Of a stretch of DNA of 64,000 nt, positions 17,001-64,000 are shown piece by piece. Numbering within the stretch: the stretch's first letter is position 1; the number at the start of each line of letters is the position of its first letter. The stretch is from Escherichia coli (GTDB taxonomy: Bacteria; Pseudomonadota; Gammaproteobacteria; Enterobacterales; Enterobacteriaceae): the NCBI RefSeq assembly GCF_003790525.1, contig NZ_CP033635.1. The stretch is one strand, 5' to 3'. The notes below the pieces were generated by a model that had not been told where the DNA came from, made no database searches, and saw only the letters and a program-made list of their open reading frames with translations. The translations under genes and the position numbers were made by a program.

Positions 17001-18932
17001 AGTAAATCGCTTTCCGGAAAAGGTTCAGTGGGCATACTGAACACCACTGATCTGACACTTTCCGGAGATAACCGTAATTTCAGCGGTGAATTCCGTGTGC
17101 AGAAAGATGCTGCTCTGCGGGCTTCAGATGAAAAACACCTGGGCACCGGGCTGATTGACAGTGATGGTGTCACCTGGCTTACCGCCAGTGGAAACTGGTT
17201 ACTGAAGAATGATATTACTGGCTCCGGCGCTCTGGTGAAACAGGGGGCGGGTAATCTGATCATTAATCATGAGCTGACTTATACCGGTGATACCACGGTT
17301 GAGAATGGCGTTCTGATTGTCGGTGATGATTCAGTCACCCGTGCCGCTGGCGCGACGTTGTCAGGATCCAAAAACATTCATGTTCTTAATGGCGGCACAC
17401 TGAGTGGGCTGGGGACCGTTTCGGGTCAGGTTAATAACCAGGGAACACTGGCATCACTGAATGCTCTCTCAGGTTATGAAACGGCAGAGGCGGGCAATTT
17501 TACCGTTGGCTCACTGACCAATACCGGCGTCATTCGTCTGGCCGGTGGTAAGACAGGAAATACCCTGACCGTAAATGGCGATTACACTGGTGGCGGTACG
17601 TTAATTATCAATACCGTGCTGGGGGATGATACTTCTGCCACTGACAAACTGATTGTCACGGGTAACACCTCCGGTGATACCGGCGTGGTGGTGAATAATG
17701 TCCGGGGCCAGGGGGCTCAGACCGCTGACGGCATTGAGATTGTGCATGTCGGTGGGCAGTCTGACGGTAACTTCAGACTGCAGAACCGTGCGGTGGCAGG
17801 GGCATGGGAATATTTCCTGCATAAAGGTAATGCGGGTGGTACTGACGGTAACTGGTATCTGCGTTCTGAATTGCCGCCAGAACCACAACCGCAGCCGCAG
17901 CCACAACCGCAGCCACAGCCACACCCCACGCCGGATAAACCTGTACAGAAGGTCTATCGTCCGGAAGCGGGCTCTTATATTGCGAACATAGCGGCAGCCA
18001 ACACGCTGTTCAACATCAGAATGCACGATCGTGAGGGGGAAACTTACTATACCGATGTGTTTACTGGTGAGAAGAAAGCAACAAGTATGTGGATGCGTCA
18101 TATCGGCGGTCATAATCGCTGGAAGGACAGCAGTTCACAGCTGAATACGCAAAGTAACCGTTATGTTGTGCAACTGGGTGGCAGCATTGCGCAATGGACT
18201 GACGGTCAGGACCGTCTGCAACTGGGGATTATGGCCGGTTATGGAAATGAGAAGAGTTCCACGACATCCTCGCTTTCGGGATATAAATCTAAAGGTGCGA
18301 TCAATGGATACAGCACCGGTTTATACGGAACGTGGCAGCAGAATGACGGTAATGACAACGGGGCTTATGTCGATACCTGGATCCAGTACGGATGGTTTAA
18401 TAATACCGTTAATGGTGAAAAACTGGCTGCGGAGTCCTGGAAATCCCGTGGATTTACCGGTTCAGTGGAAGCGGGTTATACCTTTAAAGCCGGCGAATTT
18501 ACCGGTAGCCAGGGTAGTCACTATGACTGGTATATTCAGCCGCAGTCCCAGATCACGTGGATGAATGTAAGAGCCAGTGAGCATACGGAGAAGAATGGCA
18601 CGAAAGTTCAGCTCAGCGGAGACGGTAATATCCAGAGTCGTCTGGGCGTCAGAACTTACCTGAAAGGTAAGAGTGCGTCTGATGATAATAAGGCGCATCA
18701 GTTCGAGCCATTTGTGGAAGTTAACTGGATCCATAATACACGGAGCTGGGGTGTCAAAATGGATAATACGGCACTCAGTCAGGACGGAGCTACAAATATT
18801 GCTGAAGTCAAAACGGGTGTTCAGGGTAAATTGTCAGATAACCTGAATGTCTGGGGCAATGTTGGTGTTCAGGCTGGCGATAAAGGGTACAGTGATGCCC
18901 AGGCAATGCTGGGTATTAAATATATATTCTAA
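11019..18932 (+). CDS. upaE: giant AIDA-I-type (type Va) autotransporter adhesin
   Basis: The 2637-aa ORF starts with an ESPR-type extended signal peptide (MNKIYKVIWNHTTQKWDVVSELT). A long Gly/Asn/Thr-rich beta-helical passenger follows, then a PQ linker and a C-terminal beta-barrel ending in KYIF. The symbol follows the ipuR-linked locus of CFT073. Confidence 0.85.
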   Translation: MNKIYKVIWNHTTQKWDVVSELTSCRKKCKSTRLGIALSAMVLGGAIAINCNNAMADVILSPDWRPGTNNSGVGAATVSGKTEYITGPNVVQSGGSGLIWMTVEQAILNGYTTGDNLSGLIYVNTGEKTKTITVKDEVTGAYQTLQVFDTDSFSQRDAGTGGNETIPGFSGTADFFNATRFVTANNGGTAILDVGSPAIGNFFKNTQLAVADGEGSSVVWNSVNDFYFQPGATMQGGGVTQKIIDSMKYAGTITDWAGKVHHINSLDDLKQYNQYLIKSLEDKTLSYKQYDAEFNKALIVTKHNYNVDMTAGGRIDSTPYKENVGLLAVLHATNNARAILGKTGKLTGVLPAYGNGGGIVATNGGTGVNEGVIDAIGTEMIAYQDSTIVNDGTLFVWDNNDKYALQAEGMVAGSNGSSAINNGVINIRPFKNAFAPEGINTAIVVSNGGMATNKGTINITADASTNDNNGKTRGVNVGAGGSFINSAFGSINVGIAEDKTATHSAVGSVAIEVQNGANKVVNEGTIFLGRGAQGNYGILAKDAGSVDVVNKGTITIDGYDSDAPALNVGMLANNSSGMKNSGIINVNGLNSTGLQVINAGQLNSDGTINVGGEGISSGFRNYGAWVEGARSNVNVSGKINLSGTGAVGVFAKDGGSLTLSGNGAVLFGSSDQIGFYVYGKDSAIHNTGSGVMDVSTENSTLFRIASGATFQGTADASSALTASGKNSYALIATGKSDGGVASTVTSGGMTINLTGEGATATLIEGGAQGTIESNAIINMDNASAIAGIADGNGYDISGKLINPKDKTTLLTAGAQLSSTQDKVTGYIARNGATLNNTGNIIFTGKNTVGVRVEEGAVGTNSGNITVQDGGVGLIANATQDVTTINNSGNLVLKGGDNANRTTGIKASGTTTTVNMTAGTISLQGQGAIGVEASNKGTVNLDGSAVPNFASDGSGITDQIAFRIIGDGATIKTNIAPGTLLDASGERSVLFRIEDGAKQAGSLLMKTSGTGSRGIWATGKGSNVLADAGSDFQILGAQAQGLYVTGGATATLKQGASVNLVGDGAVVAEVDGNEYALDGSITQTNTGSVITNEADISSPLNNAKGFITRNQGLLINSGNIDFTTGTDNIGVWVDNGRFENTGSRIAVNGVALFVEGEHAQITSTGGDIVAVDGEAAIKLGAGASLNLAGSGLGTIEGQKNAHGILLDTGAVGLVIDGAKINVNAAGAVGHGIENRAEIEGIQLTNTTEINVADGIGVRTSASLAKTNSGTINVDGSGIALAFQKADGSETDNNLDMSDSGGLVINLKGTGGTGIFANTKDGAVVKSGASVNVTQADGGSALVVNNAASEVVQSGNLISASLSHAVVDASKAQSFTNKGQIKAASATGTAMAFDDAVNTTVLNDSGAEIQGVVALNGGDNTFTNKGSITGTVSAKEGNNTFLFDDGSILTGEVAAGNGNNNVTLNGKAHVDKVTAGTGKNTFTIKGEGATWNLLDGGQGDSDSLIFDNAIHTLDSAVKLRNFEHVGLKNSSLVTLKEALVLTDGGTGPGSVDIESGSELAIIPAVAGNFTFDPLLTGKGTLSARLDADTSAFEFSHNVGDQFAGTLKLGTSSFALEGLNTSGLTHAMLMSETGNITTVGSGVQQIGGLGFNGGTLIFGSVMPGDTIASNSIETSAAGTLDIRGKGTIQVTMPDEVINDIPAVDTRKNLLEQDDAQTLVTLVNAAGTVTGTGGQLQLVDENGQAISHSQTFDVTQGGEVVAQGNYDYKLLGSSDGVKGDGLYIGYGLKSLDLQGTGDKALVLTPRANAQGLQTDLGAQLTGAGDLAIEAAGQVVTLSNGGNNYTGDTLVRSGTLQMANDNVLGATGSLNVASNAVFRTDGYSQTVGALQTETGAHIQLDSGSVLTVSGTQRQPGDDNGGIIENNVLTGDGTLAVTGSNLTVHGTNIGFTGNVSLTRGSLVEMNGAQGLGSQGSISFESLNDRLAIDIADGSGVSSNLSKSLSGKGSVGILNTTDLTLSGDNRNFSGEFRVQKDAALRASDEKHLGTGLIDSDGVTWLTASGNWLLKNDITGSGALVKQGAGNLIINHELTYTGDTTVENGVLIVGDDSVTRAAGATLSGSKNIHVLNGGTLSGLGTVSGQVNNQGTLASLNALSGYETAEAGNFTVGSLTNTGVIRLAGGKTGNTLTVNGDYTGGGTLIINTVLGDDTSATDKLIVTGNTSGDTGVVVNNVRGQGAQTADGIEIVHVGGQSDGNFRLQNRAVAGAWEYFLHKGNAGGTDGNWYLRSELPPEPQPQPQPQPQPQPHPTPDKPVQKVYRPEAGSYIANIAAANTLFNIRMHDREGETYYTDVFTGEKKATSMWMRHIGGHNRWKDSSSQLNTQSNRYVVQLGGSIAQWTDGQDRLQLGIMAGYGNEKSSTTSSLSGYKSKGAINGYSTGLYGTWQQNDGNDNGAYVDTWIQYGWFNNTVNGEKLAAESWKSRGFTGSVEAGYTFKAGEFTGSQGSHYDWYIQPQSQITWMNVRASEHTEKNGTKVQLSGDGNIQSRLGVRTYLKGKSASDDNKAHQFEPFVEVNWIHNTRSWGVKMDNTALSQDGATNIAEVKTGVQGKLSDNLNVWGNVGVQAGDKGYSDAQAMLGIKYIF
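17874..17933 (+). repeat. CCNCAR dinucleotide-codon repeat encoding the (PQ)n linker PPEPQPQPQPQPQPQPHPTP
   Basis: The repeat ccacaaccgcagccgcagccacaaccgcagccacagcc is read directly. It lies between passenger and barrel, as in AIDA-like autotransporters. Confidence 0.9.
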
Positions 18933-18939
18933 TCACACA

Positions 18940-18964
18940 GTGGCAGGAGGGGACCTCCTGCCAC
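18940..18964 (+). other. GC-rich stem-loop between the autotransporter and the skp-like gene, with no T-tract
   Basis: The hairpin gtggcaggagg-gga-cctcctgccac lies 8 nt after the upaE stop and 15 nt before the next start. Confidence 0.6.
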
Positions 18965-18979
18965 CTCAGGGTTGTCATA

Positions 18980-19510
18980 ATGAGTTCTGTAATGAAATTT
19001 TCTGTTGTTAATGCAGTAGTGCTGCTGTTGCTGATTGTACTTACTGGTGTTTTTTATATGAAAAAGTCAAAAGAAATTGCAGTTGTTAATATCGATGCTA
19101 TTTATAATCAGTCTGCCGCCGGAGACATGGCCAGAAAACATCTGAATGAGGTTAAGAGTATTCTTGAAAAAGGATATGAGGATGCGCAAAAAGTATTCGC
19201 AGATAACGCGAATAAAGAGGCGCTGCTTCTTGATGCCAGACAAAAACTGGAACGACAATATGTTATTGAGGAAAATAGCGCAAAAATGGTGTTATCCCGT
19301 GCGATAGATAATGCTATAGGCACATGGAGAAAAGACAATCCTAAAAATATTGCCGTATTGTCTTCAGGTGTTGTGCTTGCGCATAACGAGTCAGCTGATA
19401 TCACCAAAGAAGTCATGACTCTGGTTGAAAAAGAAAATCTGGTTTTTAATAAATTACCCAAAGTGGAAGTGCACAATAAGAATGAAGAGAAACCAGAACA
19501 AAGTAAGTAA
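18980..19510 (+). CDS. Skp/OmpH-like periplasmic chaperone paralog
   Basis: The 176-aa ORF has an N-terminal hydrophobic segment, then IAVVNIDAIYNQS followed by a long charged helical region. This is the OmpH-family pattern. The start could be 18992. Confidence 0.6.
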   Translation: MSSVMKFSVVNAVVLLLLIVLTGVFYMKKSKEIAVVNIDAIYNQSAAGDMARKHLNEVKSILEKGYEDAQKVFADNANKEALLLDARQKLERQYVIEENSAKMVLSRAIDNAIGTWRKDNPKNIAVLSSGVVLAHNESADITKEVMTLVEKENLVFNKLPKVEVHNKNEEKPEQSK

Positions 19511-19947
19511 TCACTAGATTCTGACGATTTCCAGAAGGGAGATTCAGCAGGCCAGCATCTGTAATCATTCAGATTTTCTGGCTTGCTGCTAAATATGGTT
19601 GCTGAGAAAAATAGCAGTCCAGTAATTTATTCAGATTACTGAATATAATAATTTTTCAGGAACGGTTATGCTGAAGGTAGTATGTTTAATCGACACAATT
19701 ATTTGCTGTGTCTAATATGAGGTGACATTTTTATGATCACTGACCAGCAAGACTGACCCGTATTGATTAGCCTGATTATTGGCAACTTATTGGGGTAGTC
19801 ATTTTGACATCGAATGGGGGAGGTTTCCAGTTAAGTTCACGAATGCATGATGATTTGCGTTCACATATCGAAGTGCTGGTTGACTATACTAAGGATTTTA
19901 AGATAACTCACTGATTGTAAGTGGGTTATTGCGAGGGGGATGATAAA

Positions 19948-19966
19948 TGGTGTCCCTGCAGAAATC
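19948..19966. repeat. distal att repeat (degenerate copy of the argW 3' end)
   Basis: tggtgtccc-tgcagaaatc here compares with tggtgtcccctgcaggaatc at 32636-32655. The difference is one 1-nt deletion and one mismatch. Confidence 0.7.
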
Positions 19967-20183: not shown

Positions 20184-20432
20184 ATGCGCACACAGGTTGT
20201 ATTGCAAAAATGGGGTAATAGCATTGCCCTTCGACTAACGGGAAACCTTAAAACCGTTCCGGGGTTTTCAGTGGGTGATATCGTCAACGTTGAAATTAGT
20301 GAAAAGGGGCTTTTTGTAGAAAAGCCTGCACGCCGTCGCCTGAGTGAAGCCGAATTACTCGCCGGGATAACGCCAGTTACAGCGCACGCGGACGAAATTG
20401 CCACCCCATTCAATGAGGAGGTTGATTACTGA
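20184..20432 (+). CDS. MazE/ChpS-like antitoxin (AbrB/SpoVT fold)
   Basis: The 82-aa ORF contains the motif LQKWGNSIALRL, characteristic of MazE-type antitoxins. It has an acidic C-terminus and a TGATG overlap with the toxin gene. Confidence 0.8.
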   Translation: MRTQVVLQKWGNSIALRLTGNLKTVPGFSVGDIVNVEISEKGLFVEKPARRRLSEAELLAGITPVTAHADEIATPFNEEVDY

Positions 20433-20776
20433 TGTTTGTACCTAAGCGTGGTGATATTTGCTGGCTGGATTTTGAGCCGCAGAAAGGAAAAGAGAGCGGA
20501 AAGTATCGCCCGGCACTCATACTATCCCATGAGCAATATAACCGACTCACCGGGCTTGTCATATGCTGCCCCATAAGTACGAGCATACGAAATGCTCCCA
20601 CAGAAGTTCCGGTAACAAATCTGGACGCCCCCAGCGTGGTAGCAACCACACTCATTCAAACCCTTGACTGGCGTCAGCGGAAAGCGCGCTTAATCACAGA
20701 GGCAGAAGATGGGGTATTTAATGATGTGCTTGAAAGAGTCATTACCCTGATTGGTGGAGAGCATCTGCTTAAGTAA
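20432..20776 (+). CDS. MazF/PemK-family endoribonuclease toxin
   Basis: The 114-aa ORF contains PKRGDICWLDFEPQKGKESGKYRPALILS and VICCPISTS, the MazF/ChpBK pattern. Confidence 0.8.
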   Translation: MFVPKRGDICWLDFEPQKGKESGKYRPALILSHEQYNRLTGLVICCPISTSIRNAPTEVPVTNLDAPSVVATTLIQTLDWRQRKARLITEAEDGVFNDVLERVITLIGGEHLLK

Positions 20777-20819: not shown

Positions 20820-22091
20820 CTATTCTTTCCAGTCAATCCCATCCAGTAAGCACCCTGCCTCATATTGCCCAACAACCCAGTCAAGATTGCAGGACTCATA
20901 GAAAGCGAGGCGATTATACTGTGGCTCGTTTTTTACCAGACCACGAACGGAGCCGCGTTGCCAGTACAGGCACAGATTGGCAAGAGGTGTGATCAGCACA
21001 GCATTGTCCGGGAAAAATGGAACGGTCACAGCCGGAAGATTCCCCAGCACGGGCTTTTTAATGATTTCCTCGTTAAGCAAAATTTCCTGATTCATCTGCG
21101 ATGGATCAAGACGGTTTATCAAAGGCCATTGTTTACGGACCAGAGTATTGTGACTGCATACGGCCACAATGCCTTCCTGCCACTGTTCATCAATCATGGA
21201 TTGCCAGGCATCCAGAACAAGTGCATCTATTGTATGGTGTGTACCGCGTGTATTGCTTGTCGGCGATGAAACAGAAAGACCGCTGATAACCCTTCCCGCT
21301 GCTTCGTTTCGAAACTTCTGCAACCATCCGACGCCGCAATCGTCACGGCCCGGATATGTTTCAGGATCAGATTGATCGGCATAGTGTGTGCCGTTAAAAC
21401 CAATCTGAATTAAATCCAGCCATTTCCGGCGTTCAAAAGCGGCACGGGCGCTTCCTTCAAGACCATTTGCGGACGCGTGAGCATCGACATTGTCGTAGCT
21501 CAACGCAAAATCAAAATTAACCTGCTCGCAGCGGTAGCCTCTTGAAACCAGTGAATGCGCCTGTAGTGGCGAACGGCGCTCGTGAGGTGGCGATGTACGT
21601 GCCAACGGCCGGGAAGCGTCTACCAGCACAACCTGACCTGATATATCCGTAACAGGCACGGGGGTTATTTCAGCAAGGAAATTTGCCTGCCATCCACTGG
21701 CAAGCGTTGCACTCTGGCGGGGAACGGGTTCAACTTCTGACGAATAGCGCGCAGTATCACCGGAAAAGTGCAAATCCTTCGGATGCTTTCCGGTTATCGA
21801 CTCGATAGCGCAATTGAAAACCATCTGAGACTGTTGATTTCGTTGTGATACAACATAATCAGCAGTGCAATTATAACACTCAATGCCGTCGTTATTACCC
21901 CCACCGCTTGCAGTATGCAGGGTGTGAAGCTCAAGCTCACGCTCCAGTTTTTGATATTCATTGTCCAGCGCGCGACGCGTCTCATCGCTTATGCTTGCTG
22001 TGTTTGCTTTCAGGCGATTCCGGGACATTAACTCCCTGAGTCGGCTCACTATATCAGCGCCGTGCAAATGTGAAATATTCAGACCGCCCAT
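20820..22091 (-). CDS. P2 GpN-family major capsid protein homolog with a ~95-aa N-terminal extension (possible fused scaffold domain)
   Basis: The protein is collinear with recalled P2 GpN. CEQVNFDF aligns with CDQINFDF, GWLQKFRNEA with GWLQKYRNEA, GNLPAVTVPFFPDNAVLITPLANL with GNLPAVRVPYFPADAMLITKLENL, and YESCNLDWVVGQYEAGCL with YESMNIDYVVEDYAAGCL. The start was chosen at the TAATG overlap with the upstream gene (MGGLNISH) rather than the ORF-track start at 22232. Confidence 0.8.
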   Translation of the reverse strand: MGGLNISHLHGADIVSRLRELMSRNRLKANTASISDETRRALDNEYQKLERELELHTLHTASGGGNNDGIECYNCTADYVVSQRNQQSQMVFNCAIESITGKHPKDLHFSGDTARYSSEVEPVPRQSATLASGWQANFLAEITPVPVTDISGQVVLVDASRPLARTSPPHERRSPLQAHSLVSRGYRCEQVNFDFALSYDNVDAHASANGLEGSARAAFERRKWLDLIQIGFNGTHYADQSDPETYPGRDDCGVGWLQKFRNEAAGRVISGLSVSSPTSNTRGTHHTIDALVLDAWQSMIDEQWQEGIVAVCSHNTLVRKQWPLINRLDPSQMNQEILLNEEIIKKPVLGNLPAVTVPFFPDNAVLITPLANLCLYWQRGSVRGLVKNEPQYNRLAFYESCNLDWVVGQYEAGCLLDGIDWKE

Positions 22092-22801
22092 TACTGCCAC
22101 CCCCGGCAGAGTTCTCTGCCCTCCGCAAGGTCGCGCATTTTTTCTGGATTCTGTCGCGCCGCGCTCCATTGTACAGGTGAAGGGGCGTTCCTGATTGCGT
22201 GGCTTACCGAATCCGGCAGTTTCTCCGGGCAATAACGAAGCGGATTGGAGGCATCGCTCTCAATATCGTTAATCCGGCCGCGAATCAGCCCGACACTTTC
22301 AACAATATCTGCCATTTTCAGTGTTTCACATATTTTCTTTTCTGCGTTATACAGCGGCTGGCCAAGCAGCTCACATAAACCACGAATCAATAGCAGAGCA
22401 GGGGTCAGCTCGTTAATCAGTCCGGGAAGTGCTTTTGCAAATATCTCTGCCCGCAACTTATTATCAATGCTTTGGTAAGCACAGCCAGCCTCTGCCGCGT
22501 TATAACGACACTCCAGTAACCTGATGCGCGCCTCATCATGCAATACCCGCAGACGCTCAAGATTTTCTCGCGCCACACCCGCCTGAATGCATAATTTTGC
22601 GGAGGCTTCCGTTTTTGCGCCCAGCGCAGACAGGATTGAGTTCTGCCAGTCACGTTCGAGAGACTCCAGCTCCCCTTTCGTCTGTTCGATAGTCGCTTCC
22701 AGATTGGTGATTAATGATTCCTGTTCGCTGAGTTTTGCCATGGCCGTATCAAACTGTGCTTTACATGCCTGATGCCTGGCGCTTGCCTGAGTTATATCCA
22801 T
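22091..22801 (-). CDS. coiled-coil protein, possibly Sid/Psu-like capsid size-determination or decoration factor
   Basis: The 236-aa ORF is predicted helical, with a heptad-rich N-terminus (AKLSEQESLITNLEATIEQTKGELESLERDW). Its size and position (after Ogr/Delta, before the capsid gene) resemble the P4 sid/psu module. An AGGAG RBS is present. Homology is not verified. Confidence 0.45.
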   Translation of the reverse strand: MDITQASARHQACKAQFDTAMAKLSEQESLITNLEATIEQTKGELESLERDWQNSILSALGAKTEASAKLCIQAGVARENLERLRVLHDEARIRLLECRYNAAEAGCAYQSIDNKLRAEIFAKALPGLINELTPALLLIRGLCELLGQPLYNAEKKICETLKMADIVESVGLIRGRINDIESDASNPLRYCPEKLPDSVSHAIRNAPSPVQWSAARQNPEKMRDLAEGRELCRGWQ

Positions 22802-23249: not shown

Positions 23250-23432
23250 CTATGAAGTTTTCAACTTCCTGCGCTTAGTGATGCGTACAAACGACTCAAG
23301 CGTACAAAAACAAGCCCCACACTCAATATTACTGCACTGGTAATACGTTTTGTAGATGTTTTGTTCGTGCTCTTCCAACGAACGACTACGGGTTCGGGCT
23401 GAAGCGCCACAGGCCGGGCAAGGGAAAGACAT
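23250..23432 (-). CDS. Ogr/Delta-family zinc-finger late-gene transcriptional activator
   Basis: The 60-aa ORF has CPACG...CSNIECGACF, four Cys with the Ogr/Delta spacing. A GAGGAG RBS is present. Confidence 0.8.
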   Translation of the reverse strand: MSFPCPACGASARTRSRSLEEHEQNIYKTYYQCSNIECGACFCTLESFVRITKRRKLKTS

Positions 23433-23793
23433 ATCACGCTCCTCTTACTGGTGTGAAATTTGACCTATTATATCTCCTGCCGCCCCCTCTGGCTGTATCA
23501 AATAAACCCGCAGCAGTCGCCGCGTATTACGGACGGACGCACCGTTCCCATGCTCACTCGTCACATTCCCCGTATCAGTTCTCTCTTACCGTAAGAACGG
23601 CTCTGGCTGGCGATAAAACTAACCCGGTCGGGCATTCCCGCAGTCTTTAGAGAAAATGTAATTTACCCCCTGAAACGTGGGCTGTTCCCCCGTCACCTGC
23701 GCGCGAAAAACTCACCGTTTTTTGTGCACGCACGAAATCGCCCTCCGGGTGCGCCAGTACTGGGCCGGATGGGCAAAAAGTTACTCTAAAAAA

Positions 23794-23820
23794 TTGTGCA
23801 AATTTGTGCACTTTTGTGCA
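23794..23820. repeat. three helically phased direct repeats of TTGTGCA (exact 10-bp period)
   Basis: ttgtgca occurs at 23794, 23804 and 23814 in non-coding DNA between the iteron field and ogr. Confidence 0.85.
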
Positions 23821-24046
23821 GATGAACAATAGCGTGAAAAAGAGTGCTTTTGAGAGATTTTTTATGGCAACTGCGCCGCGTGTATTACGTTTTTTACCAT
23901 CCCCGCCGCGCATGTACATACTTCATTTTTCTGCCAGACAACAGGGCAACTCCCCGTGACTGACAGCCCCAAAAAATCAATGATTGATGTTGCATTTTTG
24001 TTAAAGGTTAGACCAGTTGTTTTAGGGCTCTGCCTCATAATCCGGT

Positions 24047-24360
24047 GGGGGGTGCGCAAAGCGGTTACAACGGTTACAACACTCAAAAACACCACTTAAC
24101 AGCATGATTTTAATGGATATTGTTTGTAACCGCTTTGCGGTTACACTGCGGTTACAACGGTTACAGGTTTCAAAAAGCACTTTATTATCAATCAATTAAA
24201 AACTTAACCTGTAACCGCCTGTAACCTAACAAAACGGTTACATGTAACCGCGTTGTAACCGCTTTTATAACTCATCGGACCAGTTATAATATATTGATAT
24301 ATAATACAAAAATAAGTAATTTTAAATTTGTAACCGTTGTAACCGCTTTGCGCACCCCCC
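24047..24360. repeat. iteron field (candidate replication origin): 13 copies of GGTTACA/TGTAACC enclosed by 33-bp perfect inverted repeats, with an AT-rich tract
   Basis: The left arm ggggggtgcgcaaagcggttacaacggttacaa (24047-24079) is the exact reverse complement of 24328-24360. The heptamer occurs in both orientations throughout. The AT-rich stretch lies at about 24280-24327. Confidence 0.7.
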
Positions 24361-24611
24361 CCCAAACTTTAGCGCGACCCTTTAAAATGTTAATTAAACT
24401 CACTTACTCTGTATCTCTCTCGTTAACTCTCTGTTATTGAAATGTATCTCTCCACTGTTTCACTCTTTCTGATAATCAGGGGAAGCAAAAAATTGATGGC
24501 GGCACTACTGCAATATGGCCACCATTGCATTGCTGTTACCGTTGGTTCTGGCCAACAAAAAAGGTCAGCGGGAAACTGACCTCTTTTGCTGTGAATGCGG
24601 CGTTCTGCGGG

Positions 24612-25616
24612 TTACTCTGCTGGCTCTTTTTCTTCGGTGATCACTATGTTGGCTACCGGGTTAAATCTCATGGCATCTGCCAGATAATCCGGTGCAAAAT
24701 GTGCGTATGCCATAGTCTGCTGAATTGTCGCATGCCCAAGGATTTTTTGTAGCGCAAGAATGTTGCCACCGTTCATCACAAAGTGACTGGCGAATGTATG
24801 CCGCAATACATGCGCAGCCTGCCCCCTCGGTAAATCGGGTTTTATTTTTTTTAATGCCCGGCAAAACTCTCTGTACTTCACATCAAACAGTCGCCCGGTT
24901 TCTTTTGTTTTTACGGCATCGCATATTTCCTGCGACACAGGCACCGTTCTTTTTCTACCGTTTTTGGTTTCCAGAAACGTTATTCTGTTATGAACTATTT
25001 GCTCTCCATGCAATCTGCTGGCCTCACTCCAGCGGGCTCCGGTACAAAGACACAAGAGCGCAACCCTTCGTTGATCTCCATTCAGCCCGTCAAGCAACAA
25101 TGTGACCTCGTTTTTTGATAAAAAGGCCATTTCCCGCTGCTTTACATAAAGAACAGGAATACCACGAACCGGATGCTCTGCATCCCACAAACCGATCTTT
25201 TTCAGGGCTGTAAACATCCCCGATAATCTGTTCATGTATCTGTTTGCTGAGGACGGCTTTAATCCTTCCGCAATTTTCTGCGATCGCCATGCAATGATTT
25301 TTAATTTGTTGAGTTCTGCCGCAAACATGTCAGCTCCAAGCTCATTAATAATTTTGCCAAGTTGCTGTTTATCCGTGTTTGCCTTTCGCCTGTGCTGACC
25401 GTGATAGACCCACCACAATTCCAGTAAATCGCTAAGCGTTCTCCGGTCGCGATAGCCCTGTATAAACTCGCGCTTTTCGGCGTTCGCTATGATGTACCGT
25501 TCAGTTGCTGTAGCTATCGATTTTTTGTCAAATATTCTTCTGATGCGCTTCCCTTTACGTCCGCATGGCCTGATATCGAGCAGCCACCGCCCATCATGCA
25601 TCTTTCTGATCGGCAT
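24612..25616 (-). CDS. P2-type tyrosine integrase (second recombinase of the island)
   Basis: Residues MPIRKMHDGRWLLDIRPCGRKGKRIRRIFDKKSIA ... LCLCTGARWSEASRL ... HVLRHTFASHF ... LGHATIQQTMAYAHFAP are collinear with recalled P2 Int. The ATG lies 2 nt after the primase stop, with a GGAGGGGAG RBS inside the primase 3' end. Confidence 0.85.
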   Translation of the reverse strand: MPIRKMHDGRWLLDIRPCGRKGKRIRRIFDKKSIATATERYIIANAEKREFIQGYRDRRTLSDLLELWWVYHGQHRRKANTDKQQLGKIINELGADMFAAELNKLKIIAWRSQKIAEGLKPSSANRYMNRLSGMFTALKKIGLWDAEHPVRGIPVLYVKQREMAFLSKNEVTLLLDGLNGDQRRVALLCLCTGARWSEASRLHGEQIVHNRITFLETKNGRKRTVPVSQEICDAVKTKETGRLFDVKYREFCRALKKIKPDLPRGQAAHVLRHTFASHFVMNGGNILALQKILGHATIQQTMAYAHFAPDYLADAMRFNPVANIVITEEKEPAE

Positions 25617-25618
25617 GT

Positions 25619-28288
25619 TTAACTCCCCTCCTTGTAACTGAATATCCGGCATTTCAGTACTTCCGGCTCTCTGGCCTCGGCGACCCCTCTTCCGGCGTTT
25701 GCCTGTCTGGAGACCTCACTACGAATGGTTTTGCGGCCTGTCAAAGGTCGGGAACGTCCGGCTGCGAGCAACTCAATCATTTCGCGGTCAGTTCGGATCT
25801 CCACGCGGTGAATAGCGGCAGCCTGTGCCAGTTGCGGAATACTGATAGCAATCCCCTCGCGGCATCCCTTGCCGTAGTGGTTTACACCGTATTTTGTTAT
25901 GCCGTCCAGATAGTCGAACGCCTCCCAGAACGCTATTACTTCCGGCAAGTCATCCGTTACCGCTTTAACTTGTTCCGCTGCCATTCGTTCCAGTTCCTGG
26001 CATGTGGCATTAAGCCATTCATCCGGGATATCAATAACGCATTTCAGCGCCCTGACCAGCGCAATAAGTTGCGCGTGATTTTTGGCAATACGGGGATGGA
26101 GAATATTTTCGCAACCGCAAAGGCGGGTCGTTTCAGGCTCTGAGAGCGCCAGAAACATTTCCATAATTGCCCGTTCACGGCTGACTGCCCGATGAATAAA
26201 CCCTGACACCTTCTCAACGGGGTAGAGTTCCAGTCGTCTCGCCGCCAGCCGGGTATCAGACGAGTGGCGCTTTTTATCGGTATATATGCGAATCAGTCGC
26301 TCAATAATTGCAAGTGAGGCGTTTACCCTGGCATTCTGTGCAATCACGATAGCGCCCTTAAAATCCGGGTCATAGGTGTTGTTATTGTTGGTCTTAACGC
26401 CACGAACGCCGATACCGCCGCCGTTATAGAGGCTTTTCAGGTTATCGAAGTCAAACGCACCTCTTTTTTGCGCATTGCCTCCCCTGTCTGCTTCAATCAG
26501 AACAACAGGTAATCCGGCGACCTGTCCAAAGGTGCGCTTCCAGCCCGCCTCTGATCCTTTGGTTGGATCAACGCCTTCATAGTTGTCACGACCGCACAAC
26601 CGCCAGCAAAAATCAATCAATGTTGATTTACCCGTTCCGGGCTCCCCGGTGACTTCAAGGAAGGGGAAGGATTCTTCTTTATCCCGGATTTGTTCGCTGA
26701 ACAGGGAGCCCAACCAGAAAGCCAGGGTAATAATTCCTTTTTCACCAAAAGCCAGCCAGAGATCTTCCACCCAGGACTCTGTAAACTCATCCGGTTTTTT
26801 GTAGTTAATCTGTAATGTGGGTTTTTCGCTTAATGGTTTTGCGTTTATGCCATCAATTTCAAAATAATCTTCGTCATTGATTTCATAAGTTTTTCCCTTG
26901 TAAACAGCAATATCATTAAACAGCCATGCCCCAATCGCCTTGTTGTATCCGATAAAATCCTGACCAATAACCTCTTTTATTGCGGGAAGGTCATTTTTTA
27001 TTAATGCGTCAAGGTGCGCAGTTGTTCCGGTATAAATGCCGCCTTTTGCCACATGCAACAGGCGTTTTTTAAATTCAGATGCGGATGTCAATTGTCCTGA
27101 TGTAAAGGTGTTTTTCACCGTAGCACCATCCGGGAACGTAACACGGAAGTAATACCATGCTTCATCCGTGTCATTATTTCTAATGTAATAAAGCGGCGCT
27201 GGGTTACAGTTTGCGATTTCTTTTACTGCGCCAGATTCCTTAAGTGCAATTTTGCGCGCTTCATCCTCATCAACACTTCTCTCATTCTTGGCACGCTCTA
27301 CAGCTTTCATATAGCGCTCAATGTCCAGTTTGAACCAGAAAACACGGTTATCAAAAGTAAAATGAAATTCCTTCCGCTCACGAAAGGAAAATATTATTAG
27401 CGCCTTATCTCTCGGAGATTTCGCCAGCAATAAATCACCGTAATGACGGTATCTTTTCACATCATGGCCACGCAGCTTTCCGGCGATGTGTAAATCATTC
27501 CAGTCGCGTTTATTGTTGTTTTTACCTGGCAACGCCGCTGCCGTTCTCCAGCCGTCTTCGGCGCTGCGTTCTGCATGTTTTTTCGCGTAACGCTCACCCG
27601 CACGCCCGTTATCCAGCGCCCACACAATAACCGGACGGGGATTATCCCCGCACAGCTTCGCCAGCTCTTCCAGCGCCTTATCAGGGTAGTTCACGGCAGA
27701 CATGACAGAAACGGCCGCAATGCCATTCTGGTTAAGGCTGATGGCATCAAAGATGCCCTCACAAATCCAGATTTCTTTGGCCTTGCTTAAATCTGCTCCC
27801 GGATAAGCCCACCACAACCCCTTGTAGCTGCCGGAAAAATTCGCCTTGCGCGCGAAGCGTCCCGGTCGGTCTATGATGCGCTCCCACCACACGCCGTCAG
27901 CCAGCGTAAAACGCACAGTAGCGGCCTGTTCGCCGTTTTCCTTGTCCTGGTATCGCTCCTGAGTAAATGCGCCCTTCAGTGGCCCCACAGCAATATTGCG
28001 CGCCTCCTGAAGATAAGCTGCCACCGCTGCATATGGCTCGTCTTTCGTGCTGATATAACGATCTGACCATGATGAAAACACATCCGGGTAAAGTTCTTTG
28101 GTCAGCAGGTCTGTACCGCATTTATTTTCGCGCCCACAGTGTACGATGTACGGCCTTTCAAGGCTGGTAAACAACTCTTTCTTTCCACATTGCGGACAAA
28201 CACCATACCGGAGGTAGTTATTTTCTTCTTTGAAGTTGTAATCACGGATAAGACGGTTAATAATCTCTTTTCTGATGTCAGATTTCAT
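25619..28288 (-). CDS. P4 alpha-like primase-helicase (Zn finger, Toprim and SF3-type P-loop NTPase)
   Basis: The features are CPQCGKKELF...HCGRENKCG (zinc finger), WICEGIFDAISL (Toprim) and VTGEPGTGKST (Walker A). The start was chosen at MKSDIRKE (28288), which has a GGTGGAG RBS. Confidence 0.85.
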   Translation of the reverse strand: MKSDIRKEIINRLIRDYNFKEENNYLRYGVCPQCGKKELFTSLERPYIVHCGRENKCGTDLLTKELYPDVFSSWSDRYISTKDEPYAAVAAYLQEARNIAVGPLKGAFTQERYQDKENGEQAATVRFTLADGVWWERIIDRPGRFARKANFSGSYKGLWWAYPGADLSKAKEIWICEGIFDAISLNQNGIAAVSVMSAVNYPDKALEELAKLCGDNPRPVIVWALDNGRAGERYAKKHAERSAEDGWRTAAALPGKNNNKRDWNDLHIAGKLRGHDVKRYRHYGDLLLAKSPRDKALIIFSFRERKEFHFTFDNRVFWFKLDIERYMKAVERAKNERSVDEDEARKIALKESGAVKEIANCNPAPLYYIRNNDTDEAWYYFRVTFPDGATVKNTFTSGQLTSASEFKKRLLHVAKGGIYTGTTAHLDALIKNDLPAIKEVIGQDFIGYNKAIGAWLFNDIAVYKGKTYEINDEDYFEIDGINAKPLSEKPTLQINYKKPDEFTESWVEDLWLAFGEKGIITLAFWLGSLFSEQIRDKEESFPFLEVTGEPGTGKSTLIDFCWRLCGRDNYEGVDPTKGSEAGWKRTFGQVAGLPVVLIEADRGGNAQKRGAFDFDNLKSLYNGGGIGVRGVKTNNNNTYDPDFKGAIVIAQNARVNASLAIIERLIRIYTDKKRHSSDTRLAARRLELYPVEKVSGFIHRAVSRERAIMEMFLALSEPETTRLCGCENILHPRIAKNHAQLIALVRALKCVIDIPDEWLNATCQELERMAAEQVKAVTDDLPEVIAFWEAFDYLDGITKYGVNHYGKGCREGIAISIPQLAQAAAIHRVEIRTDREMIELLAAGRSRPLTGRKTIRSEVSRQANAGRGVAEAREPEVLKCRIFSYKEGS

Positions 28289-28336
28289 ATATAAAACTCC
28301 ACCCCACTGCACCTTTTGCCGTGGGGTTTTTATTAA

Positions 28337-28636
28337 TTACTCGTTACTTATTGCTTTGGCAATCCCGGCGGTTTCAGCACTATGCCATGAAAAAATTCCG
28401 CCAGAAGTATGCATTCCTGACTTAATCACTCGTAATTCCCGATAAAGAATGTTAGTTAATGATTCCATTTCATTAATTTGCACTGGCATTCTCTCACTGG
28501 TATTAATTTCACCTGTCAATGCTGAAATGAGCGCAATAACATTTATTACATCTTCAAGATTCTCAATGGAATCTTCCGTGAAAAAACCAGCGTATTCTTT
28601 TTTGTATATATTGCGGATATTCTGATTTTCAGACAT
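28337..28636 (-). CDS. hypothetical protein (satellite early operon)
   Basis: The 99-aa ORF has a GGGGAG RBS, is co-oriented with the operon, and was not recognised. Confidence 0.5.
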   Translation of the reverse strand: MSENQNIRNIYKKEYAGFFTEDSIENLEDVINVIALISALTGEINTSERMPVQINEMESLTNILYRELRVIKSGMHTSGGIFSWHSAETAGIAKAISNE

Positions 28637-29106: not shown

Positions 29107-29289
29107 TTACCCCTCCATGATTTTTACTGCGCATTTGTGGGTTAATCGCCCCTGTTTGTCATTGCGGGAATATGCCATACGACAGGTATCACGCCATGCA
29201 TCGTCATAAGTCGGATATTCCCGGGAATGAATCATCTGGCGAACGTCGCCGTTCTGGTAGTTAATCAGGGTGATAAGGAGCTTAAACAT
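29107..29289 (-). CDS. hypothetical protein (satellite early operon)
   Basis: The 60-aa ORF starts at MFKLLITL. Its ATG overlaps the upstream stop (ATGTTTAA). The longer 145-aa ORF-track version was rejected. Confidence 0.45.
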   Translation of the reverse strand: MFKLLITLINYQNGDVRQMIHSREYPTYDDAWRDTCRMAYSRNDKQGRLTHKCAVKIMEG

Positions 29290-29809
29290 GGCACGCCTCC
29301 CGGACACGGATACGGGCAACAAAGACCAGACGGGATGCCGGAAGCAGGGCGCGCGCTTCGCGCTCACTGGCAGCGGTAACGGTATGAAGGCGGATATTTT
29401 TACCGTGGCACTGCATAAAGCGCCAGATAAAATCAGGGCGTGTTGATATAGCCATTTTGGCGGCTCCTTGATTAAGTTTACGGAGTCTCGCCAGCACGCT
29501 GTCAAACATGGTGGCGGGACGTAACAGGGTTGACAGACTGGCAATCAAGGAACCAGCGAGCGCAAAGGCTCCCCCATTACGCCCCGCCATAATACGGGGT
29601 AGGGTGGAATTACGGGCACAAAAAAACCGCATTACGGAAATATAGCGGCTACCCGCTTGATTGTTCAGGCTGTCAAACCCGGCACCCGCTTTATGAGGTG
29701 CGGGCAAACGATACGCCATGACAAAAAAGCGAGTCAAGCAATATTGCAAATTATTTTTGCGCAATTGCGCTGAGTGATTGATTTTTAAGAGTAAAAAAGT
29801 CATAATCAT
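29282..29809 (-). CDS. Ash-family / Icd-like (cell-division-inhibitor-like) protein, possibly a fusion or with a later start
   Basis: The middle segment (AGAGFDSLNNQAGSRYISVM...RIMAGRNGGAFALAGS) resembles Ash-family proteins of P4-like islands. The C-terminus (FIWRFMQCHGKNIRLHTVTAASEREARALLPASRLVFVARI) resembles Icd-like proteins. Confidence 0.55.
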   Translation of the reverse strand: MIMTFLLLKINHSAQLRKNNLQYCLTRFFVMAYRLPAPHKAGAGFDSLNNQAGSRYISVMRFFCARNSTLPRIMAGRNGGAFALAGSLIASLSTLLRPATMFDSVLARLRKLNQGAAKMAISTRPDFIWRFMQCHGKNIRLHTVTAASEREARALLPASRLVFVARIRVREACHV

Positions 29810-30362: not shown

Positions 30363-30584
30363 TTAAGCCTGAAAACGTTGTTGTTTTCTTTCTTCTATCC
30401 AGTCGATAATTTCCTCTTCAACCCATGCAACCGCGCGAGGGCCTATTTTTATTGGTTTGGGGAATATATCAGATTTTATATCTTCGTAAATTCGAGCTCT
30501 TGATCTCCCTGTGATTTCAATGACTCTGGGGAGTCTTATTAATTTTTGAATCCGCCTTTCGCTGGTCTGTGAGTATGCTGACAT
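30363..30584 (-). CDS. alpA: AlpA/Vis-family phage transcriptional regulator or excisionase (MerR-like HTH)
   Basis: The 73-aa ORF contains LIRLPRVIEITGRSRARIYEDIKSDIFPKPIKIGPRAVAWVEEEIIDWI, the AlpA signature. Confidence 0.85.
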   Translation of the reverse strand: MSAYSQTSERRIQKLIRLPRVIEITGRSRARIYEDIKSDIFPKPIKIGPRAVAWVEEEIIDWIEERKQQRFQA

Positions 30585-31112: not shown

Positions 31113-31147
31113 TAAAAAAATCGGCGTGTCCACATATTGTCCACGCC
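31113..31147 (-). terminator. rho-independent terminator of the island integrase, with two GTGGACA direct repeats in the hairpin
   Basis: On the minus strand, ggcgtg-gacaatatgtgga-cacgcc is followed by gattttttt, about 48 nt after the int stop. Confidence 0.65.
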
Positions 31148-31194
31148 TTGAGTTTAATTCAGCCGCTTGGGATAGTTTAGTTTGTTGAGTTGAT

Positions 31195-32457
31195 TCAGTC
31201 TGTTTCGTTAGTCCATTTAAAATCATAGGGGGAAATATATGCCGCCTTGCAGGTGTCGAGATAATCAGCCCACCATTGCAACATTCGGCGGCGTTCCTGC
31301 ATATGTTCAGCTCTGTGAACGTATGCAGCCCGGACACTGCCTCTTTCCCTGTGACTCATCTGAAGCTCAACGGCTTCTCTTGTCCACCTGCCTGACTCTG
31401 TCAGCGCCGAACAGGCCATGGTCCTGAATCCGTGACCACAAATATCTTTTTTTGTGTCGTATCCCATGTGGCGTAATGCCTTGTTAATGGTGTTTTCGCT
31501 CATTGGTTTTATCTGGTAATGGTCGCTGGGGAAAATAAACACTTCATCACCGGATATATTTCTTATATCGTCAAGAAGCTGCATGGCCTGAGTGGGTAAA
31601 GGGATGGCGTGAGGGGTTCCCATTTTCGTTCCACGATATGAATATTTTACGCCTTCTATTTTTTCGCGTTCTGCTGGTATTACCCACATTGATTTATCAA
31701 AGTCAATTTCATTCCAACGAGCAAAACGCAATTCACTTGAGCGAATAAAAATTAATAAATTTAATTTTAGTGCAAATTGCGTTAATAACCGTCCATTCAT
31801 CTTATGGTGGTAATCATTTATTTTGCCAAGTAATTCAGGTAATCGCTCAAGGGGAAGAGCGGGGCGATGTTTGGTTTTATTAGTTTCGATTGCACCGTTC
31901 AGTTCCTGCGCTGGATTGTATTTAATCATTCCATTCTGTACAGCGTAGCGCATAATGGCGTTCATTCGCTGCTTGTTACGTGATGCTGTCTCAAGCACTC
32001 CTTTGTCTTCCATTTTGCGTAAAGGAATCAGTAGATCCATGGTTGTGATCTCGTTAATTGGCCTTTTACCAAGAATGGGGAAGATGTGGTTTTCCAGGTC
32101 TTTTAAGACTTTTTGCGCGTGCAATTCGCTCCAGCCCTTTTTCCGGCTGTGCCATTCTCTGGCAACGTCTTCAAAAAGCACTATTTGAGGTTTTGGTGTG
32201 TGCAGTGGGTCAATGCCTTTAGCCAGGCTCGCCAGATATTCATCACGAGCGTTCCTTGCCTGTGCAAGTGTTACGGCAGGATAAATGCCTAAAGCTCGGG
32301 TCGTTTCTTTACCGTTGATAACCTTGCGAAAGCGCCAGTATTTTGAGCCGTTGGGGTGAACATAGAGATACAGGCCTTTCCCGTCACGAAGTTTTTTAAT
32401 TTTATTGTTGTCCTTATCTGGTTTGGCGTTACGTACAGCTATATCAGTCAGTTTCAT
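31195..32457 (-). CDS. P4-type (DUF4102 N-terminal arm-binding domain) tyrosine integrase
   Basis: The ORF has MKLTDIAVRNAKPDKD...GKGLYLYVHPNGSKYWRFR, and C-terminal HGFRTMA and Y in VRAAYVHRAEH. The start at 32457 has a GGAGGA RBS. The gene lies directly downstream of, and co-oriented with, tRNA-Arg. Confidence 0.9.
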   Translation of the reverse strand: MKLTDIAVRNAKPDKDNNKIKKLRDGKGLYLYVHPNGSKYWRFRKVINGKETTRALGIYPAVTLAQARNARDEYLASLAKGIDPLHTPKPQIVLFEDVAREWHSRKKGWSELHAQKVLKDLENHIFPILGKRPINEITTMDLLIPLRKMEDKGVLETASRNKQRMNAIMRYAVQNGMIKYNPAQELNGAIETNKTKHRPALPLERLPELLGKINDYHHKMNGRLLTQFALKLNLLIFIRSSELRFARWNEIDFDKSMWVIPAEREKIEGVKYSYRGTKMGTPHAIPLPTQAMQLLDDIRNISGDEVFIFPSDHYQIKPMSENTINKALRHMGYDTKKDICGHGFRTMACSALTESGRWTREAVELQMSHRERGSVRAAYVHRAEHMQERRRMLQWWADYLDTCKAAYISPYDFKWTNETD

Positions 32458-32635: not shown

Positions 32636-32710
32636 TGGTGTCCCCTGCAGGAATCGAACCTGCAATTAGCCCTTAGGAGGGGCTCGTTATATCCATTTAA
32701 CTAAGAGGAC
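32636..32710 (-). tRNA. argW: tRNA-Arg (anticodon CCU)
   Basis: The reverse complement reads GTCCTCTTAGTTAAATGGATATAACGAGCCCCTCCTAAGGGCTAATTGCAGGTTCGATTCCTGCAGGGGACACCA. It forms a cloverleaf with a CCT anticodon in CTCCTAAGG and an encoded CCA end. Confidence 0.93.
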
Positions 32711-63187: not shown

Positions 63188-64000
63188 GTGAAAATCCTTG
63201 TTGATGAAAATATGCCTTATGCCCGCGACTTATTTAGCCGTTTGGGTGAGGTGACCGCGGTTCCCGGGCGTCCAATTCCCGTCGCTCAACTGGCCGACGC
63301 GGATGCGCTGATGGTGCGTTCGGTCACGAAAGTGAATGAATCTTTGCTGGCAGGAAAACCCATTAAATTTGTTGGCACTGCCACAGCGGGGACCGACCAT
63401 GTCGATGAAGCGTGGTTAAAGCAGGCGGGAATTGGTTTTTCCGCTGCACCTGGCTGTAATGCGATTGCGGTGGTGGAATATGTTTTCTCCTCCCTGCTGA
63501 TGCTTGCCGAACGCGATGGATTTTCACTGCACGAGCGTACCGTGGGGATCGTGGGCGTTGGTAACGTTGGTCGCCGTTTACAGGCACGACTGGAAGCGTT
63601 AGGGATTAAAACCTTACTTTGCGATCCGCCTCGCGCCGACCGTGGAGATGAGGGTGATTTCCGCTCGCTGGATGAATTAGTTCAGCATGCGGATATTCTG
63701 ACTTTCCATACGCCACTCTTTAAAGACGGGCCGTACAAAACGCTGCATCTGGCGGATGAAAAACTGATCCGCAGCCTGAAACCAGGAGCGATTCTGATTA
63801 ACGCCTGCCGTGGCGCAGTTGTCGATAATACCGCCCTGCTGACCTGCCTGAACGAAGGCCAGAAGTTAAGCGTAGTGCTGGATGTCTGGGAAGGCGAACC
63901 GGAACTTAACGTGGAATTGCTGAAAAAAGTGGATATCGGCACGCCGCATATCGCAGGCTATACCCTGGAAGGTAAAGCACGCGGTACTACGCAAGTGTTT
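63188..64000 (+). CDS. pdxB: erythronate-4-phosphate dehydrogenase, N-terminal 271 codons (runs off the window)
   Basis: A GTG start gives (M)[29 protein letters not shown]. The frame stays open to the window end. The ORF is absent from the ORF track because it has no stop in the window. Confidence 0.9.

Follow-up and report, generated by a model that had tools for sequence, protein, structure and literature searches.

We analyzed a stretch of 64 000 nucleotides (nt) of Escherichia coli DNA (contig NZ_CP033635.1 of assembly GCF_003790525.1; hereafter, the window), which carries a 12.7-kb P4-like satellite at the tRNA gene argW. In addition to a P4-type integrase at its tRNA end, this satellite contains a second integrase gene, here termed int2, at positions 24612–25616 on the minus strand, which encodes 334 amino acids (aa). 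An earlier note on this DNA had described the gene as a full-length integrase collinear with P2 Int and containing R...HxxR...Y regions, with an ATG 2 nt past the stop codon of the satellite primase and a ribosome-binding site inside the primase 3' end; the gene was taken to be part of the replication operon and not a stray fragment, and four roles were considered, namely alternative integration, multimer resolution, action on the adjacent inverted repeats, and interference with the integration or excision of the helper phage. The features at int2 are as follows.

24612–25616, minus strand: int2, predicted P2-family tyrosine integrase with Int_N and catalytic domains (Pfam, PDB, RefSeq coding sequence in strain GF60)
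24843–25616, minus strand: allelic cassette, about codons 1–258 of int2 (alignments with strains C25 and TOE17)
25617–25633, minus strand: coupling junction, comprising a Shine-Dalgarno (SD) sequence, the primase stop TAA and a 2-nt spacer (sequence, relatives)
25619–28288, minus strand: primase-helicase of 889 aa (Toprim_2/Toprim_3, phrog_1139), first gene of the coupled pair (Pfam, PHROG, RefSeq)
24553–24591, minus strand: terminator hairpin and T-run, predicted end of the primase-int2 transcription unit (hairpin scan)
24044–24363: iteron origin bounded by 36-nt inverted repeats (repeat scan, relatives)

Pfam searches of the int2 product identified Int_N (PF24624; 5e-24, residues 57–154) and Phage_integrase (PF00589; 7.5e-20). 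The closest solved structure was the P2 integrase 5c6k (E = 5e-80), collinear over int2 residues 49–322, followed in the PDB by the HP1 integrase 1aih (E = 4e-48), and the identity to P2 Int was 51%. The catalytic set comprised R195 (TGARWSE), K218 (TKNGRKR), H269/R272 (HVLRHTF), H295 (LGHAT) and Y304 (MAYAHF), and these six residues aligned to those of 5c6k without gaps; the possibility of a pseudo-integrase was checked by this alignment, and the protein was not degenerate. The N-terminus, with the pattern MxI(R/K)K..DG.(W/Y)..D(I/V)RP.G..GKR, aligned with those of P2 and P88-type integrases. As predicted from these domains and alignments, int2 encodes a full-length P2-family tyrosine integrase in which all catalytic motifs are intact, in agreement with the earlier description.

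The open reading frame (ORF) scan gave an open frame from 25652 to 24612, in which the start codon at 25616–25614 (ATG) follows the RefSeq annotation of strain GF60, 99.7% identical to the window. The primase ORF (25619–28312) ends with a TAA at 25621–25619, so that exactly 2 nt (25618–25617) separate the primase stop from the int2 ATG. The SD sequence of int2, AAGGAGG (25633–25627), lies within the final primase codons (..K E G S and stop), 10 nt before the ATG. The SD sequence, stop and ATG were kept in the 7 fully read loci, the junction was identical in ten satellite contigs from IMG/VR, and in strain C25 the primase stop and the int2 start overlap as ATGA. A sequence scan for promoter-like sites on the int2 strand upstream of int2 found none, and a GC hairpin followed by a T-run forms a terminator 20–60 nt past the int2 stop. 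Because int2 lacks a promoter of its own, is coupled at the junction and is followed by a terminator, the transcription unit would consist of the primase, int2 and the terminator. The probable co-transcription and translational coupling of int2 with the satellite primase are supported by these features, and both the junction and the operon membership given in the earlier note were confirmed.

An integrase gene was located at the same junction in 20 of 20 loci in which the primase was at least 77% identical. These loci were the window, E. coli GF60, K_EC180, C25, TOE17, STEC316, ETEC1716 and ETEC4067, Escherichia sp. MOD1, Yersinia enterocolitica, and ten IMG/VR contigs; a primase scan of genome contigs, which depends on exact peptide words, gave 2 loci, and IMG/VR gave 10 usable ones. 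In 18 of the 20 loci int2 was full-length, the exceptions being one copy cut by a deletion (K_EC180) and one cut by a contig end. The C25 satellite uses another primary integrase and another site (between hpt and gcd), yet it retains the primase, int2, the origin and ogr, and the satellites of STEC316, ETEC1716 and Yersinia have the same primase/int2 junction with the capsid module moved. Within allele lineages, the ratio of nonsynonymous to synonymous substitution rates (dN/dS) was 0.09–0.19, indicating purifying selection, which was strong on the catalytic domain. By this comparison int2 is a conserved and selected part of the satellite, as the earlier note had held against a stray fragment. 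The alternative that the gene marks a separate P2-like remnant was also examined by comparative genomics and is not what the comparison shows: int2 lies inside the replication module of satellites with different primary integrases and sites.

More distant satellites in Salmonella (primases 55% and 61% identical) and Pectobacterium (54%) did not contain int2. Primases of 50–52% identity belong to true P2-like phages, where the Int_N integrase occupies the canonical int-C/cox position. The absence of int2 from the distant satellites, together with the canonical position of int in phages, indicates that a single satellite clade, that of E. coli and Yersinia, acquired int2 at the boundary of primase and origin. 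Members of the phrog_1139 primase-helicase family also serve complete P2-like phages of Providencia, Salmonella and E. coli (loci L013, L021 and L022) as replication protein, and P88-like phages carry an unrelated 940-aa replication protein as well as ParM/partition genes.

Individual loci showed signs of decay near int2. In GF60 (locus L001, 8905–11212), an IS21-family insertion separates the ogr/Delta gene from the cos/origin region, and in K_EC180 (L004, 8351–9050), the deletion runs from the 3' part of int2 through to the ogr/Delta gene, corresponding to the origin and cos of the window. Two satellite copies are present in ETEC4067 and probably also in STEC306–308.

We compared the satellite with a collection of phage records and obtained a single match, namely the cos-like block at 23661–23821, which was 78–83% identical to the joined genome ends (cohesive-end region) of the P88-like phages P884B11, P88, 569R5, 705R2 and PhiR44_2 (Xuanwuvirus, Peduoviridae). 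This match points to a P4-like satellite with P88-like helpers. In an island-wide alignment with the window, the C25 satellite showed 95.8% and 92.7% identity on the two sides of a single gap (24840–25608), and the TOE17 satellite showed 93.5% and 92.0% on the two sides of a single gap (24843–25566). When C25 and the window were compared in 100-nt steps, the identity was 42–54% from the int2 ATG to ~24850 and 86–100% over the last ~140 nt (from ~24750). In these two comparisons, alignment failed only over the int2 cassette, the satellites being about 92–96% identical elsewhere. At least five int2 alleles (window, TOE17, ETEC1716, C25 and Yersinia types) were distinguished, which are 43–58% identical to each other, and a search for further alleles with the conserved C-terminal 71 aa returned short fragments only. 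The phage integrases nearest to each allele are listed below.

Window type: P884B11, Chuche, PhiR44_2 and Shae_phiSM; 78% global identity, 80–82% BLAST local identity
C25 type: P88; 76% global, 77% BLAST local
TOE17 type: vB_EcoM-569R5 and 705R2; 85% global, 86–88% BLAST local
ETEC1716 type: no close phage integrase; 57% at best
Yersinia type: P2, nearest among the phage integrases compared; 60% global

Three of the four E. coli alleles thus have their nearest relative among the integrases of P88-like (Xuanwuvirus) phages, a different phage in each case. For the core-binding and catalytic domains, respectively, the identities to the closest phage partner were 84% and 83% (window), 70% and 81% (C25), and 89% and 97% (TOE17). 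In P2-like phages the core-binding domain is variable and sets the integration specificity (PMC3448106). The C-terminal tail of int2 (..NPVANIVITEEKEPAE) is satellite-specific. Between the window allele and its phage partner, synonymous sites were saturated (pS 0.78), and among 5426 E. coli genomes we found no phage int closer to the window allele than about 75% nt identity. As judged from this divergence, the satellite/phage allele pairs are old lineages and not recent copies. From these comparisons, int2 is most likely a specificity cassette exchanged between satellite variants.

We also considered whether int2 is a neutral passenger, that is, a copy of a helper int that has been repeatedly gained or converted by recombination with co-resident P2-like prophages. 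The homology to helper integrases offers a recombination substrate, the K_EC180 copy is truncated by its deletion, and relatives devoid of int2 exist. However, the dN/dS values, the junction conserved from E. coli to Yersinia, the 18 full-length copies among 20 loci, and the age of the allele lineages, with the window allele at a distance from every phage int in the 5426 genomes, make this explanation very unlikely.

The inverted repeats next to int2, first reported as 33 bp, are real and were measured as 36 nt with 97% complementarity (24044–24079 and 24328–24363). Between them are about 14 CGGTTACA iterons (GGTTACA type). A Salmonella satellite that lacks int2 (L019) has GGTTACA iterons with 31-nt inverted repeats directly past its primase, and its iteron block is 69% identical to window positions 24048–24370 over 331 nt. 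Variation in the origin block followed the C-terminal region of the primase and not the int2 allele; for example, TOE17 and ETEC1716 have different int2 alleles and the same identity dips in the origin block. The idea that int2 inverts the segment between the repeats is suggested by the position of an integrase gene beside a long inverted-repeat pair, and inversion products were sought as the orientation of the block in E. coli genomes. The block was collinear with the window in 64 of the 64 genomes that have it, and none was inverted. Because the block also occurs without int2, co-varies with the primase and has a fixed orientation, action on the inverted repeats, one of the four roles in the earlier note, is refuted, and we give an invertase practically no credence. 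The iteron block is, on these comparisons, the predicted origin of the primase and not a substrate of int2. As a separate observation, the primase C-terminal region (25700–26000) and the origin diverge together, as expected of an initiator-iteron specificity pair.

To locate a substrate of int2 in the satellite itself, we compared the island with the attachment sites of the related phages. The attP of P884B11 has arm doublets TGTCCACGCAGTGTCCAC and TGTCCACGCAATGACCAC around the core AAAATCCTTGTTGAGGAAAA, of which position 15 is T in phage Chuche and in pdxB. The attB core of this phage type coincides with the first pdxB codons, AAAATCCTTGTTGATGAAAA, and about 300 of 5426 E. coli genomes have a prophage of the P884B11 type at pdxB. 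The relevant sites in the window are the following.

63191–63210, plus strand: attB of P884B11-type phages at the start of pdxB, intact and empty; candidate target in trans (core match)
31127–31144, plus strand: arm doublet TGTCCAC-ATAT-TGTCCAC, candidate binding site of the Int2 or helper Int N-domain (consensus match)
31195–32457, minus strand: P4-type primary integrase (Arm-DNA-bind_3, Phage_int_M and catalytic domains; Pfam, RefSeq)
32636–32710, minus strand: argW, tRNA-Arg(CCT), attL side of the satellite (tRNA scan)
About 19947–19965: attR, degenerate copy of the argW 3' end (sequence match)

No match to AAAATCCTTGTTGATGAAAA (20 nt, at most 5 mismatches) was found in the island, and the only good match in the window was that at pdxB (63191). 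A BLASTN search of the window with phage attP DNA (9 kb around the phage int) detected only the int coding region, tiny matches in the icd region, and the 20-nt core. In the phage loci, the arm doublets and core are clustered at the int 3' end, no more than about 300 bp away from it, and the P-arm doublet lies in the 3' end of the int gene; it is absent from int2, and no arm doublet was found in the island near int2 or flanking any candidate core. Furthermore, int2 has no linked immunity repressor or Cox/Apl, and its neighbors are the primase and the origin, compared with int-C/cox in the phages. We also found no satellite block co-varying with the int2 allele in the C25 and TOE17 alignments, although a site of at most 30 bp inside conserved DNA could escape such a comparison.

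The doublet at 31127–31144, to which the earlier note had pointed, is the sole arm doublet in the island. It matches the P2 P-arm at 17 of 18 positions and fits the published consensus tgTGGaCa, and so its likeness to a P2-type arm doublet stands. It forms part of a hairpin with a T-run that directly follows the P4-type integrase gene, 5.5 kb from int2. The satellites of Yersinia and of Salmonella (L019, without int2) also have the doublet, and the int2-bearing C25 satellite does not; the presence of the doublet in relatives without int2 indicates that it is not dedicated to int2. On the int strand the context reads GTGGACA-N4-GTGGACA (window 31121–31160; L011 2724–2760; L019 2369–2400), and comparison of the satellites from E. 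coli, Yersinia and Salmonella shows a variable spacer between unchanged heptamers. The P2 P-arm doublet likewise has a flanking inverted repeat after int. Two further candidates were rejected: a third TGTCCAC (31381) lies inside the ORF of the P4-type integrase, is not conserved in Yersinia and is attributed to chance, and GCCAC-type (186-like) motifs downstream of int2 resemble, by eye, motifs in the corresponding spacer of L019, which has no int2.

These data bear on the idea of a second integration system, in which int2 would insert the satellite into a helper-type attB (e.g. pdxB) or a secondary site by means of an unrecognized attP. The protein is a complete integrase including the arm-binding N-domain, the satellite has one consensus arm doublet, and satellites often exchange their primary integrases (PMC8628076). 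Nevertheless, the island contains no core match, its sole doublet is distant and shared with int2-less relatives, in every locus with flanks read the satellite adjoins its primary integrase (P4-type or another) at argW or hpt/gcd, and the pdxB attB in the window is empty. We regard a second integration system as improbable. The P4-type integrase gene adjoins tRNA-Arg(CCT), and argW and the degenerate attR form the att repeats, both as noted earlier; the alternative integration proposed at the same time does not hold, for there is no att core or flanking arm doublet for int2, and the chromosomal position of the satellite goes with its primary integrase, being argW here and hpt/gcd in C25. From this arrangement, integration of the satellite is attributed to the P4-type Int at argW and not to int2.

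The invariant heptamers raise another possibility, namely that Int2 or the helper Int binds the doublet and so modulates either satellite excision or the termination or read-through of transcription from the P4-type int into the alpA operon, with catalysis being secondary. The doublet itself may be a sensor for the helper Int or a regulated terminator, given its close match to the P2 P-arm and the hairpin and T-run after int. A purely regulatory Int2 is nonetheless doubtful, because the doublet occurs in int2-less Salmonella satellites and is missing in the int2-bearing C25, all catalytic residues are conserved with strong selection on the catalytic domain, and allelic core-binding domains would be needless; we consider a regulatory role about as improbable as the second integration system.

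A further alternative, argued by analogy with Cre/loxP of P1 or Xer/cer, is multimer resolution: acting at a site in its own element, Int2 would convert dimers of the replicating satellite circle to monomers, which would then be available for packaging and segregation. The circular replication of P4-type satellites and their ability to persist as plasmids speak for this view, as do the link between int2 expression and the replication protein, the position of the gene beside the origin, and the ParM/partition genes of P88-like helpers, which suggest plasmid-like biology. However, alleles that are 43–58% identical would need different cores, whereas nothing else in the island varies with the allele; relatives whose primase and origin are homologous dispense with int2; heterobivalent P2-type integrases do not usually serve as resolvases; and no directly repeated arrangement of arm and core was found. 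The multimer resolution suggested earlier is therefore unlikely, no satellite site having been found to co-vary with the allele. If int2 did have this role, a heterobivalent phage integrase would have been put to an uncommon purpose.

We tentatively favor, at somewhat less than an even chance, the reading that int2 is a helper-type-specific recombinase that acts in trans on helper att sites. Since the integrase is intact, under selection and coupled to replication, has no site of its own, and occurs as cassettes of helper-like alleles, its substrate would be found most simply in the helper system; we infer both the helper att sites as the substrate and the direction of the reaction. Among the four roles in the earlier note, interference with helper integration or excision fits best, in view of the allelic cassettes and their mostly P88-like pairing, although co-residence with prophages lends it no support. 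In P2, int is transcribed from Pc. Excision of P2 needs Int and Cox, and Cox represses Pc, blocks integration and activates P4 (PMC3936717). According to the proposed mechanism, int2 would be produced only during expression of the satellite replication operon, since it is read and translated with the primase. Its targets could then be attL and attR of a resident P88-like prophage, recombined with the aid of IHF and the Cox protein of the helper; alternatively, it could join attP to attB when a helper genome enters the cell, and for the window allele this attB would be the empty site at the pdxB start. In this way the satellite would control, during replication and packaging of its own DNA, whether the helper genome resides in the chromosome. 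It is conceivable, though we hold it with still more reserve, that the satellite uses the int2 cassette to control the integration state of the helper, either by excising a P2-type prophage that is short of Int or by forcing an incoming helper into attB; in the latter case the helper would give late proteins and yet not be packaged. The allelic series would then track the types of attachment site in the helper population.

Several points weigh against a helper-directed recombinase. The gain of the satellite from excision or integration of the helper is not obvious, and P4 manages without such a gene; likewise, the int2-less Salmonella and Pectobacterium relatives indicate that the gene is dispensable in such satellites. 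No phage integrase exceeds 57% identity to the ETEC1716 allele, and for the Yersinia allele the best value among the phage integrases compared is 60%, to P2. Even for the paired alleles, with identities of 76–88% and, for the window allele, saturated synonymous sites, a shared core specificity is assumed. We further searched E. coli genomes with composite queries for co-residence of int2 alleles and phage integrases, the counts being confounded by double satellites and clonal strains. Among the matches listed, a P884B11-type integrase was present in 3 of 20 genomes with the window-type allele, and an extra 569R5-type copy was present in 3 to 6 of 22 genomes with the 569R5-type allele, with base rates of about 5.6% for each integrase type. 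One ETEC clone pairs a 569R5-type int2 with a P884B11-type prophage. Co-residence therefore gives the helper-directed model no support; because a helper can also be met by infection, these counts do not refute it.

Several known systems resemble parts of this arrangement. The integrases of P2 and the P88-like phages are similar to int2 in length, domain order (arm-binding N-terminus, Int_N, catalytic domain) and catalytic residues, and by sequence int2 is an ordinary member of the P2 integrase family. In contrast to these integrases, int2 has no adjacent attP, C repressor or Cox, is situated in a satellite downstream of a primase, has a satellite-specific C-terminal tail, and lacks the P-arm doublet in the 3' end of the gene. 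P4 is not known to have more than one integrase. The satellite shares with P4 and P4-like elements (PMC8628076) a P4-type Int at a tRNA, AlpA, an Icd-like gene, Ogr/Delta, a primase with an iteron origin, a borrowed cos and a size of ~12 kb. It differs from P4 in having no matches to Psu, Sid or epsilon and in carrying its own P2-family capsid homologue instead, and its primase is from a family used by true P2-like phages. Surveys of P4-like elements drop additional integrases as duplicates (PMC8628076, PMC13586616), and the position in the replication operon, the missing attP and the helper-paired cassette polymorphism are not described in those surveys, nor did we meet them in literature searches.

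Cre/loxP of P1 and XerCD at cer/dif are likewise tyrosine recombinases of circular replicons, and int2 is located at a replication module. Cre and XerCD, however, are recombinases of the simple type that lack an arm-binding domain and act at a cis site in their replicon, whereas int2 is heterobivalent and no cis site was found. PexA of the phage ICP1 directs the excision of PLE. In this case, as in the activation of P4 by P2 Cox (PMC3936717), one partner provides a factor for recombination or excision that works on the other. In both of these systems a helper protein acts on the satellite; int2 would represent the reverse, a satellite recombinase acting on helper sites.

Known control points of satellites on their helpers are capsid size, late transcription and repression. 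If the proposed function is correct, the presence of the helper genome in the chromosome would be a new control point, and the satellite would pirate the lysogeny machinery of the helper and not its capsid. It would also explain the 'extra' integrases in some satellites, which large surveys discarded as duplicates (PMC8628076). Several natural alleles exist, three of them with a related P88-like phage Int, one phage attB (pdxB) is defined, and int2 is a single small ORF.

The remaining features of the satellite are listed below.

30363–30584: AlpA (5.5e-17; Pfam)
29282–29809: Icd-like gene (RefSeq)
23661–23821: cos-like block (phage DNA comparison)
23250–23432: Ogr/Delta gene (Ogr_Delta 2.3e-11; RefSeq, Pfam)
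22091–22801: coiled-coil protein of 236 aa (ORF/Pfam scan)
20820–22091: P2-family capsid homologue of 423 aa (Pfam, PHROG, RefSeq)
20184–20776: PemIK toxin-antitoxin pair (RefSeq, Pfam)

The P4-like hallmarks found in the element were thus the P4-type Int at argW, the att repeats, AlpA, Ogr/Delta, its own primase, the iteron origin and a helper-type cos; among the satellite proteins, neither Pfam nor PHROG gave a match to Psu, Sid or the Phage_ASH/epsilon antirepressor. A RefSeq 'hypothetical protein' (23647–23919) overlies the cos-like block and is probably not a real gene. Residues 120–423 of the capsid homologue are 35% identical to the helper capsid protein and are preceded by an N-terminal extension of ~119 aa, and the capsid and coiled-coil gene pair (20820–22801) is placed between alpA and the icd-like gene in relatives.

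Relatives lacking int2 have antirepressor genes, Derepression (PF25738) and Phage_ASH, in the operon upstream of the primase (L019, 6681–6950; L012, 5534–5953). In the int2-bearing clade, the slot directly upstream of the primase (28337–28636) contains a 99-aa ORF with no family match; as a candidate antirepressor of the satellite, this orf99 was rejected, being unrelated to the Derepression protein of L019 and having no Pfam match. The PemI/PemK (MazEF-type) pair at the attR-proximal end occupies the accessory/defense cargo position of P4-like elements, where relatives have Hok/Gef or YoeB/Phd. Beyond attR (11019–19510), the window encodes a 2637-aa phase-variable autotransporter adhesin (UpaE in RefSeq) together with an OmpH-family gene.

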